From Pyrodictium delaneyi (lineage in GTDB: Archaea; Thermoproteota; Thermoprotei_A; Sulfolobales; Pyrodictiaceae), in contig NZ_CP013011.1 of assembly GCF_001412615.1 (NCBI RefSeq), forward strand, positions 990,001 through 1,022,000: DNA of 32,000 nt. The letters run 5' to 3'. The notes under the pieces are model-generated. The model was not told the DNA's origin, made no database searches, and worked only from the letters and a program-made list of their open reading frames with translations. The position numbers were made by a program, and so were the translations under genes. Positions 10,838-19,677 of the stretch are shown here, one piece after another. The stretch's first letter is position 1, and each line of letters opens with the position of its first letter.

Positions 10838-11491
10838 TTAGCTCTGCGAAGCCTGTATCCAGTCGAGCGGAGTTACGAACTTGTAGGTCTGCTTTAGCGC
10901 GTTATAGGTAGCCTTTACGAAGTTCAGCGTAGTCCTTGTGTCGCCGCGAGTGAAGCTCCACACATCTTGTATACCAGCCATCCTTAGGACTACCTTGGCT
11001 GCGTCGCCTGCTACTAGCCCTGTACCACGGGGCGCTGGCTTGAGGACCACCTCTACGCTACCACTCTTACCGCGTACTGTGAAGGGTACGCTGTGTGGCT
11101 GGTCACAGAGACACTCCCAGCTACCGCACCCACGCCGCACGGGTATTATGTTGAGCTTGGCGTTGCGTATAGCCTTCTCTATTGCTGGCCTTAGCTGCCG
11201 AGCCTTGCCCTGGCCTACGCCTACAAAGCCGTTCTCATTACCTATGACGACTACTACGCGGAACTTGTTTATGCGGCCAGCGTCAGTCATCTTCTGTACC
11301 AGTCTTACGTCAACAGTCTCGCTCTTTAGCTCTGGGCCTATCAAGTAGTCCACTATCTCGGGCTCGAGTATCGGCAGGTTACGCTCAAATATCTCGCTGA
11401 GGCTGCGTATACGACCCTCCTTTACCAACCTCCCTACGAATGTACGTGGCTTCCATTCCTGCTCGAGCTCGTAAGGCGAGAGGCTCATCAC
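10838..11491 (-). CDS. rps5: 30S ribosomal protein S5 (uS5)
   Basis: [26 protein letters not shown]...[24 protein letters not shown] 4-nt overlap with the rpl18 stop. Confidence 0.92.
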
Positions 11492-18691: not shown

Positions 18692-19174
18692 TTACTCTTC
18701 CTCCGCCACAACTACCTCTATATGGCTGTACTTCTTGAACCTAGGGGTGGAGCGGCCGAAGGCGCGTGGCATCCACCTCTTAAGCACACGCCCCTTGTGA
18801 ACAGCTATATGTACAATGCGCAGCTTCTCCGTGTCAAGCCCTTTGACCTCAGCGTTGTTGGCCACATTGTCAAGGAGCTTGAGCAGGATACGAGCAGCCT
18901 TGACCGGATAGCGGCCTATCGGCCACTTGTACCTAGCAGCGAGGCCACGGTGGTGAGCCTGCTTTCTAGCATACCTGCGCACAGGTATAGGCTCCTTACC
19001 AGCAGCAACACGCTCGAGAAACTTACGAGCCTCCTCCAGCCTCATACCACGTATGACACGAGCTAACTCGACAATCTTCTTGTACGATATGGGCGCATCC
19101 CATACCATAGCCTTAGCTGAACGCTCCTCGTCAACTCGTACTGAGTAATGCCATGTCGGCAACCCGAGGCCCAC
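18692..19174 (-). CDS. rpl22: 50S ribosomal protein L22 (uL22)
   Basis: AKAMVWDAPISYKKIVELARVIRGMRLEEARKFLERV...IVHIAVHKGRVLKRWMPRAFGRSTPRFKKYSHIEVVV. GTG start at 19174. Confidence 0.9.
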   Translation of the reverse strand: MGLGLPTWHYSVRVDEERSAKAMVWDAPISYKKIVELARVIRGMRLEEARKFLERVAAGKEPIPVRRYARKQAHHRGLAARYKWPIGRYPVKAARILLKLLDNVANNAEVKGLDTEKLRIVHIAVHKGRVLKRWMPRAFGRSTPRFKKYSHIEVVVAEEE

Positions 19175-19221
19175 CTCTCTTGCTACAGCATCCCCAGGAG
19201 GCGCTCACAGCACTGCACGCC

Positions 19222-19228
19222 TAAATAA
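19222..19228 (-). promoter_or_regulatory. TATA-like box (TTATTTA) about 50 nt upstream of the rpl22 start
   Basis: The minus strand reads ...cacTTATTTAggcgtgcag... upstream of GTG 19174. A new promoter is needed if rpl22 is no longer co-transcribed with rpl23. Motif only, with no TSS data. Confidence 0.3.
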
Positions 19229-19677
19229 GTGAATAGAGCGCTACCGGATAGTATCTACGGAGCTGCCGGGGATGAGCGAGCTGACCTGCACAGAGCACAC
19301 GCCGTGACGAGAAGACCATCTGTTGGCGACCCTCGATTCCTCTACTACACCGTAAGAAGTGAAAGTGTTAGGGAGGCCTGACGCCTAGGGGTGGAGCCTC
19401 CACGCGCTCACCGAGCCCCGAGCGACACGGGGCACTCGCGCGGGCCTGCTCCAGCCTAGTGTAGGATCAGACACCTCTATCAAGTCTTCTCTATATTCGC
19501 CCAAGATGCTCCAGTATCCCGACGACCTTTGGATAATGGATGGTGTTGGGGGATTACAATACAGTCTAGGAGGCACATTATACTATATACACTGAACAAG
19601 GATCAGAGTAGAAGTGTGTACCAAATATAGTGGGATACAATGGATATAGACGCCATCTTAAAACCATCGTATGGTGG

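Follow-up and report, generated by a model that had tools for sequence, protein, structure and literature searches.

A lineage-wide break in the S10-type ribosomal protein gene string of Pyrodictiaceae, with two predicted guide RNA genes in the rpl23-rpl22 gap

The gene string L3-L4-L23-L2-S19-L22-S3 is the canonical S10-type cluster of ribosomal protein (r-protein) genes and is among the most conserved in prokaryotes. We analysed a stretch of 32,000 nucleotides (nt) of the Pyrodictium delaneyi genome (NZ_CP013011.1, positions 990,001 to 1,022,000; hereafter the window), in which L2 and S19 are absent from between rpl23 and rpl22. A preliminary description of this DNA had taken the intervening gap for a non-coding scar. 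Our results showed that the operon break is a real, lineage-defining rearrangement of Pyrodictiaceae, so that one of the most conserved prokaryotic gene strings is broken across a whole hyperthermophile family. Judged from the sequence, the gap most likely carries two guide RNA genes for ribosomal RNA (rRNA) modification and a separate rpl22 promoter. The two RNAs, a kink-turn (K-turn) H/ACA-like small RNA (sRNA) and a C/D-box sRNA, are new RNAs of already known classes. The apparently "empty" junction would then be used for guide genes with two predicted modifications, namely pseudouridine (Psi) at a 16S U (E. coli 950) and 2'-O-methylation in helix 34.

The first description of atypical single-hairpin guides reportedly came from Bernick in 2012, with Pyrobaculum sR201-210. 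Further members of this class are sR109, sR136, sR148 and sR563 of S. islandicus (Li 2024, PMC11077068). Pseudouridylation has been proven for these single-hairpin H/ACA guides with a sole 3' guide and a maskable lower stem, and atypical guides without ACA are active in Sulfolobus (PMC11077068). As in the crenarchaeal atypical guides, the K-turn sRNA has one hairpin that a K-turn interrupts, a 3' guide that is dominant or the sole one, a lower stem that is weak or can be masked, and an ACA that some members lack or carry in degenerate or displaced form; rRNA targets and a promoter of its own, both predicted for the K-turn sRNA, are shared as well. Like sR148, and unlike classic H/ACA RNAs, it has the 3' guide only. 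It differs from them in its continuous 12-13-nt guide, in two GCC partners that permit two possible 10-layer stems, and in its origin from a different order (Desulfurococcales, Pyrodictiaceae), and no sequence or covariance-model similarity was found between them (best Rfam match PyrR204, E = 3.1). The atypical H/ACA-like guides, so far only known from Pyrobaculum and Sulfolobus, would thus be extended to Pyrodictiaceae.

Three other known systems are also close. Pf9/Pab160 (Rfam snoR9) guides 16S Psi910/Psi922 in Pyrococcus (PMC2377435). The K-turn sRNA has the same predicted target U, after GGAGC(G/C) in the 16S head, an equivalence obtained by counting and not by an alignment including Pyrococcus. 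Pf9 differs in being a canonical 10/5/9 H/ACA RNA with bipartite guides and the ACA at 14 nt, and it has no detectable homology to the K-turn sRNA. The second RNA of the gap shares with archaeal C/D-box sRNAs the box order C-D'-C'-D, 12 nt of spacer ahead of D', a K-turn at the ends that a stem closes, 10 nt complementary to rRNA, and a pair of guides of which one is conserved and the other evolves fast; it departs from them in degenerate C and D boxes with compensating Watson-Crick pairs replacing U.U, in a D spacer of 12-15 nt and in a long D'-C' linker. Guide sRNA genes at genome break points have been described in Nanoarchaeum equitans (Randau 2012, PMC3491384). There, as here, sRNA genes lie exactly where conserved genes or clusters are split, but the N. 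equitans sRNAs flank split genes, whereas those of the window sit in an operon junction, from which no causal role can be inferred.

The r-protein genes that define the break were located by the open reading frame (ORF) listing and Pfam:
30050-29334, minus strand: rpl2 (Pfam Ribosomal_L2_C)
29294-28818, minus strand: rps19 (Pfam Ribosomal_S19)
21864-20821, minus strand: L3 gene (ORF listing and Pfam)
20783-19953, minus strand: L4 gene (ORF listing and Pfam)
19938-19678, minus strand: rpl23 (uL23), last gene of the L3-L4-L23 unit (Pfam Ribosomal_L23, E 2e-20)
19174-18692, minus strand: rpl22 (uL22) (Pfam Ribosomal_L22, E 7e-30)

The distance of 503 nt from the rpl23 stop to the rpl22 GTG, given in the preliminary description, agreed with the ORF listing and Pfam, while every other junction of the cluster is at most 80 nt long or overlapping. 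Beyond the gap the minus-strand order is L22, S3, L29, Rpp29, S17, L14, L24, S4e and L5 (ORFs and Pfam). As had been claimed, rpl2-rps19 is missing between rpl23 and rpl22; we located the pair at 30050-28818 instead, retained on the same strand about 9 kb upstream of the gap. A HerA/FtsK-like (CedB-like) ATPase gene directly precedes rpl2, which overlaps its stop by 8 nt. A contiguous L3-L4-L23-L2-S19-L22-S3 string of the canonical S10/spc superoperon was not found in the window. All of its genes are present and their internal order is kept within sub-blocks, but the window reads L2-S19, about 7 kb of other sequence, L3-L4-L23, the gap and then L22-S3.

The rpl22 start at 19174 was right in that a GTG stands there. 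The true start, however, is probably the TTG at 19162, with the GTG four codons too early: an MPTW start (TTG/GTG-CCN-ACN-TGG) is conserved among relatives, and gene callers give rpl22 156 aa. The gap is therefore 503-515 nt long.

The junction is not peculiar to this genome. L23-gap-L22 was found in 8/8 Pyrodictiaceae genome loci, with gaps of 214-470 nt holding no L2 or S19, and in six further metagenome contigs. The complete genome of Pyrofollis japonicus has the same junction, and independent ENA, JGI and Logan assemblies with an identical L23 protein repeat it. Between the window and a Pyrodictium delaneyi metagenome-assembled genome (MAG) the L22 proteins share 95% identity, and the L2 protein of the window is 97% identical to that of P. 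abyssi. L2-S19 has the same neighbours in three genera, and its arrangement beside the ATPase gene is present in L031, L048 and L049 (L numbers are our own locus handles).

Comparison with relatives, one of the checks proposed earlier, gave L23-gap-L22 at all examined Pyrodictiaceae loci and a different order in Desulfurococcaceae. The Pyrodictiaceae order is CedA1-CedA1-ATPase-L2-S19-MTase-(AAA_5, VWA)-...-Methyltrn_RNA_3-L3-L4-L23-gap-L22. In Desulfurococcaceae (one complete genome) it is CedA1-CedA1-ATPase-Methyltrn_RNA_3-L3-L4-L23-L2-Cren7-x-AAA_5-VWA-S19-L22, and this sister family thus carries, instead, an insertion that parts L2 from S19. The universal string is broken in both families, each differently. 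Relative to the Ced-like anchor, the MTase-L3-L4-L23 block changed place; with the conserved upstream Ced-like cluster as reference, a move of this block and a departure of L2-S19 are equally parsimonious. The rearrangement marks Pyrodictiaceae as a clean synapomorphy, and no report of an operon break in this family was found in the literature searched.

When the gaps were aligned, most of the sequence was unalignable except for a nearly invariant block of about 80 nt that is present in all of them. Together with eight further copies from a metagenome scan, the gap copies gave a set of 16, from which the K-turn sRNA was defined. Its parts in the window are:
19483-19476, minus strand: TATA-like box TTGATAGA (putative function), 22 nt before the 5' end of the sRNA
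19453-19359, minus strand: predicted H/ACA-like K-turn guide sRNA, about 95 nt (conserved block, covariation and covariance model)
19453-19448, minus strand: 5' UGGAGC
19445-19443, minus strand: GCC
19442-19438 with 19407-19403, minus strand: non-canonical (NC) stem, CGCGC with GCGCG
19437-36 with 19409-08, minus strand: tandem G.A, with the 3-nt bulge GGU at 19412-10
19435-19413, minus strand: apical stem-loop
19399-19387, minus strand: invariant guide AGGCUCCACCCCU
19368-19366, minus strand: ACA

The consensus of the set is 5' UGGAGC-(0-6 nt)-GCC-CGCGC-GA-(apical stem-loop)-NNU-GA-GCGCG-(U/C)GGA-GGCUCCACCCCUAGGC-...-ACA. Tandem G.A pairs with a 3-nt NNU bulge, a typical kink-turn of the L7Ae type, are present in 15/16 copies. 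The NC stem changes in step on both sides (CGCGC/GCGCG to CGUAU/AUACG, CCCGG/CCGGG or GGGGC/GCCUC), and double compensatory changes occur at 9/18 pairs, comprising 5/5 of the NC stem and four above the K-turn, against 2.3 in shuffled alignments. None of 500 shuffles reached this covariation. Paired cells make up 96.5% of the alignment in the proposed register and 28-71% in slid registers. A covariance model found the RNA in 22 loci with E from 1e-15 to 1e-24, with exactly one copy per Pyrodictiaceae gap; no copy was found near L22 or in the r-protein loci of Desulfurococcaceae. The ACA is kept in 13/16 copies while its flanks vary, and Pyrofollis has it too; a pyrimidine-rich tract follows it. 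Most copies have an A/T-rich TATA-like box 21-25 nt ahead of UGGAG, the aligned boxes being TTATTTAG in L004, TTATTAG in L002, TATTTAAA in L020 and ATATTAAT in L008.

Three copies (L024, L028 and L036) lie between unrelated, non-ribosomal genes, among them urocanase/CBS genes and an MFS transporter with a molybdopterin oxidoreductase, a glutamine synthetase gene following further along. Because the same RNA occurs in such unrelated contexts, it is a free-standing, trans-acting RNA rather than a leader or 3' untranslated region (3'UTR) element.

The possible target was sought in the 16S and 23S rRNA of Ignicoccus hospitalis (Dennis 2015 supplement), the nearest relative obtainable. The invariant guide AGGCUCCACCCCU is the exact 13-nt reverse complement of AGGGGUGGAGCCU in this 16S (E. 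coli 938-950), where the Ignicoccus sequence reads CACAAGGGGUGGAGCCUGCGG; in 4.5 kb of rRNA, chance alone would give about 4e-4 such matches. The guide duplex runs up to the U of GGAGCC-U-GCGG (E. coli 950). The target region varies among Archaea (Rfam archaeal SSU consensus, via Haloarcula plasmid rRNA). In the unbiased set, the sole guide substitution (A to G in L004) stands opposite U, and the pairing is kept as G.U. Psi922 of the 16S of Pyrococcus abyssi is experimentally proven and is made by the H/ACA sRNA Pab160/Pf9 (PMC2377435). Counted from UU891/892 (AAUUGG), this would be the same U as the one at which the guide duplex ends. We take human 18S Psi1232 to be this U as well.

Productive archaeal H/ACA guides have a 10-layer GA stem (PMC4652768). 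The K-turn sRNA comes to 10 layers only when one of two partners, the proximal GG(A) or the distal GGC, pairs with its invariant GCC. In the fold compatible with 16S, two G.A pairs, five Watson-Crick pairs and GCC/GG(A) would make up the 10 layers, and the guide would start at the base of the stem. The minimum free energy fold of the window copy has GCC with the proximal GG(A), and in it the 5' UGGAGC masks the guide. For the alternative fold with GCC and the distal GGC there is one compensatory case (L005, CCC/GGG). Based on the K-turn, the pairing of the 5' and 3' ends and the ACA in most copies, the RNA is classed as an H/ACA-like (atypical) pseudouridylation guide, and most likely it guides the modification of the 16S U at E. 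coli 950.

The gene for the candidate enzyme is in the window:
4858-3785, minus strand: cbf5 (Pfam DKCLD, TruB_N, TruB_C_2 and PUA)
It lies about 15 kb downstream, as part of the same r-protein/SecY/Adk/Cmk cluster and at its far end, and a partnership of Cbf5 with the K-turn sRNA is predicted. The RNA would be transcribed in the r-protein direction from its own TATA-like box and used by Cbf5-Nop10-Gar1-L7Ae. In this model the invariant 3' guide GGCUCCACCCCU pairs with 16S 5'-AGGGGUGGAGCC-3', which would set the next U (E. coli 950, Psi922 of P. abyssi) at the base of the 10-layer GA stem. The 5' UGGAGC would mask the guide in the free RNA and would have to open for target binding.

Several results weigh against this assignment. 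The 16S and 23S sequences come from Ignicoccus hospitalis and are not Pyrodictium's own, and in S. islandicus the equivalent U914 is not a pseudouridine. The guide is not bipartite around an unpaired U-N: only the 12-13-nt 3' guide is found, with at most GCC on the 5' side, so that the pocket is non-canonical and the continuous one-sided guide unusually long. In the 16S-fitting fold the ACA lies 21-34 nt from the stem (34 nt in the window, about 21 nt in L008), and only in the alternative fold does it have the canonical spacing: there, in 11 copies, it is 13-15 nt away from the distal GGC. The ACA is absent from L024, L028 and L036, the three most divergent copies. In the gap, Rfam at E <=10 gave the chance-level PyrR204 match and no H/ACA model, and the snoR9/Pf9 model gave no match either. 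Folding stability of the K-turn sRNA of the window by itself is not distinguished from that of shuffled sequence (z = -0.2). The same holds for the whole gap (z = +0.6), which is no more stable than shuffles and is therefore not one structured RNA. Finally, the invariance of the 19-mer GGAGGCTCCGCCCCTAGGC in L019-L044 is partly by construction, as it served as the search pattern.

Other assignments of the hairpin were rejected. A classic bipartite H/ACA pocket fails on its 5' strand, which varies between copies except for GCC. A C/D sRNA was dismissed since the guide is not flanked by C or D boxes. A 23S target was considered for the alternative fold: GUCAGGCC matches Ignicoccus 23S GGCCUGAC-UG (about E. 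coli 1771), but this is only an 8-mer that is not conserved in other Crenarchaeota, and we regard it as a weak possibility; to our knowledge the position is not a known pseudouridine site. Separately, the 19-mer GGAGGCTCCGCCCCTAGGC recurs in about 20 metagenome contigs, most of them Ga0126336, within an AT-rich multi-copy repeat without the K-turn hairpin (L017, L018, L021-L023, L025, L027, L029, L030, L032, L034, L035, L037-L043 and L045). The repeat has the layout ...CAGCAGTAAAGTTTTATACAG-19mer-TCAAACCCTTACCC... and belongs to a family unrelated to the K-turn sRNA.

A non-modifying role is one way to read the antisense stretch. The K-turn RNA might bind 16S through its 13 nt without guiding modification and act as an assembly or folding chaperone for head-domain helices, in the manner of snR30/U17 or snR10 in eukaryotes, or it might have both roles. 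The duplex of 13 continuous bp, with no bulged U inside, is far longer than usual H/ACA guides, the ACA spacing misfits the fold that binds 16S, and three lineages lose the ACA while keeping the antisense stretch. However, the duplex ends exactly at a U proven as an H/ACA target in P. abyssi, the K-turn lies the canonical 10 layers away when GCC is paired with GGA, and Sulfolobus atypical guides are active without ACA. We therefore consider this reading unlikely. In its extended form, an H/ACA-derived antisense chaperone would hold the 16S head strand (E. coli 938-950) while ribosomes assemble at about 100 °C, the two 10-layer folds could serve two targets, and the position in the r-protein cluster would tie dosage to r-protein transcription; this, too, has only a small chance of being correct.

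Another possibility is that the hairpin is a cis-regulatory element, either an L7Ae- or r-protein-binding 3'UTR or leader, or an attenuator of rpl22-rps3. L7Ae-binding K-turns are known in archaeal mRNA leaders, and in Pyrodictiaceae the hairpin always lies between two r-protein genes. Such a role is very improbable, since the same RNA is found in the non-ribosomal contexts of L024, L028 and L036, is preceded at a suitable distance by a TATA-like box of its own, lies upstream, not downstream, of the conserved rpl22 TATA box, and is separated from rpl22 by an opposite-strand gene in six genomes.

This opposite-strand gene is the C/D-box sRNA, a conserved block in six L23-L22 gaps, that of the window included. 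Its parts are:
19268-19336, plus strand: predicted C/D-box sRNA, opening with GGGG
19272-78, plus strand: C box AUGAGCG
19279-90, plus strand: D' guide AGCUGACCUGCA
19291-94, plus strand: D' box CAGA
19304-10, plus strand: C' box GUGACGA
19326-29, plus strand: D box GCGA, then CCC

The ends form the terminal K-turn layout GGG/GAU/GA/GC...GC/GA/CCC, in which the G.A is kept, and the NC pairs GC/GC become GG/CC in L007 with pairing maintained. Both internal boxes were found in the copies, D' as CAGA, CCGA or GUGA and C' as GUGACGA, GUGAAGA or GUGAGGA. The C-to-D' spacer has the canonical 12 nt, and the D spacer 12-15 nt (15 nt in the window). The D half evolves freely and the D' guide is conserved. 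The guide sequence GCUGACCUGC is antisense to 16S helix 34, GCAGGUCAGC, of Ignicoccus and Sulfolobus, and two substitutions in L005 keep this pairing through G.U. By the N+5 rule, the D' guide would direct 2'-O-methylation at the first G of GG in GCAGGUCAGC. The degenerate C and D boxes (AUGAGCG, GCGA) speak against a C/D-box sRNA. A loose C/D regular expression gave two matches in the whole window, this site and one at 1057-1116 on the plus strand (ATGAAGA...GAGA...TTGAAGA...CCGA). The latter reaches into the 3' end of a thioredoxin ORF (711-1109) and may be a further C/D sRNA or have arisen by chance.

The gap was described before as AT-rich near L23, with TTTT after the stop, and GC-rich near L22, with a TTATTTA box. 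Both statements are correct: GC content is 0.37-0.45 near L23 and 0.57-0.69 near L22, and the two motifs belong to the following elements:
19677-19660, minus strand: small hairpin CCAUACGAUGG then UUUU (TTTT at 19663-19660), directly after the rpl23 stop, candidate archaeal terminator
19228-19222, minus strand: TTATTTA, putative TATA box of an independent rpl22 promoter, conserved in relatives

A T-run follows rpl23 at a similar place in L002, L003 and L005 and is missing in L001 and L008. In all Pyrodictiaceae loci a ACTTATTTAGG or CTTTATTTAGG box lies 45-60 nt before the L22 start, in agreement with rpl22-rps3-... forming a unit of its own. The same quasi-symmetric box is, in some genomes, about 26-31 nt from the start of the C/D sRNA on the opposite strand. 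The earlier proposal that the superoperon is cut into separate transcription units is supported by the conserved ACTTATTTAGG-type box before rpl22, by the predicted independent genes in between, one of them on the opposite strand, and by the T-run after rpl23 in some relatives. We infer a terminator role for the hairpin and T-run and a promoter role for the boxes from their sequence: rpl23 transcripts would probably stop at the T-run, and rpl22 and its downstream genes would be driven by their own conserved TATA box.

That the gap is a functionless scar of rpl2-rps19 excision is highly improbable. It has no protein-coding potential and no Rfam match at the gathering threshold, and outside the two blocks most of it is unalignable between genera, with a length of 214-540 nt. 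A 63-aa GTG ORF (19576-19385, minus strand) has no Pfam match and is, as stated before, unlike L2 or S19; a second ORF of 50 aa on the plus strand belongs to no Pfam family either. A protein-coding reading of the two was rejected on this ground and because of non-triplet indels in the conserved block. Against the scar stand two conserved blocks with compensatory changes and rRNA complementarity, and no relic of L2 or S19 was found in the gap, where tblastn gave only noise (best E 0.29 and 0.16). Since the 503-nt gap holds conserved RNA genes, a covariation-supported K-turn sRNA and a C/D-box sRNA, the claim of a non-coding scar fails. At the gathering threshold, Rfam found only a tRNA-Ser in the whole window. 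As Rfam contains neither RNA, the region has a non-coding appearance, which is a warning for annotation. Misassembly, with rpl23 really joined to rpl2, had nothing found in its favour and is excluded for practical purposes by the identical junction in complete genomes, MAGs and independent ENA/JGI/Logan assemblies and by an L2-S19 locus with the same neighbours in three genera.

Taken together, we consider it probable that a Pyrodictiaceae rearrangement, a functional gap with predicted H/ACA-like and C/D guide genes and a separate rpl22 unit explain the locus. The rearrangement would have split L22-S3-... off from L3-L4-L23, so that L2-S19 now lie about 7 kb upstream of L3-L4-L23, beside the Ced-like ATPase gene, and the resulting intergenic space would be functional. 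For both RNAs the expression, protein partners and modified nucleotides are predictions.

The genes around L2 and S19 gave some further observations. The HerA/FtsK/AAA_10 ATPase gene (31461-30043, minus strand) is preceded in relatives by two CedA1 (PF27251) genes, so that L2-S19 appear coupled to a Ced-like DNA-transfer cluster. In the Desulfurococcaceae genome L047, cren7, a chromatin protein gene, directly follows rpl2 (11014-11154). A pair of genes for a MoxR-type AAA_5 ATPase and a VWA_CoxE protein lies at 27399-24315 on the minus strand of the window, and elsewhere at 11642-14591 in L047, 12008-14975 in L048, 11983-14911 in L049 and 695-3488 in L013. In both Desulfurococcaceae and Pyrodictiaceae the pair is in or beside the L2/S19 part of the ribosomal cluster. 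The combination of AAA_5 with VWA/MIDAS resembles the eukaryotic ribosome-assembly factor Rea1/Midasin, and by this analogy a link of the pair to ribosome assembly is conceivable. Together with an adjoining small ORF (27399-23433 in the window versus 12008-16507 in L048), the pair is inverted in Pyrofollis and L049 relative to the window; the S19-L3 region was thus rearranged again within Pyrodictiaceae. At the other end of the cluster, cbf5 is followed by a small-domain methyltransferase gene (3812-3165) and tRNA-Ser(GGA) (3110-3023).

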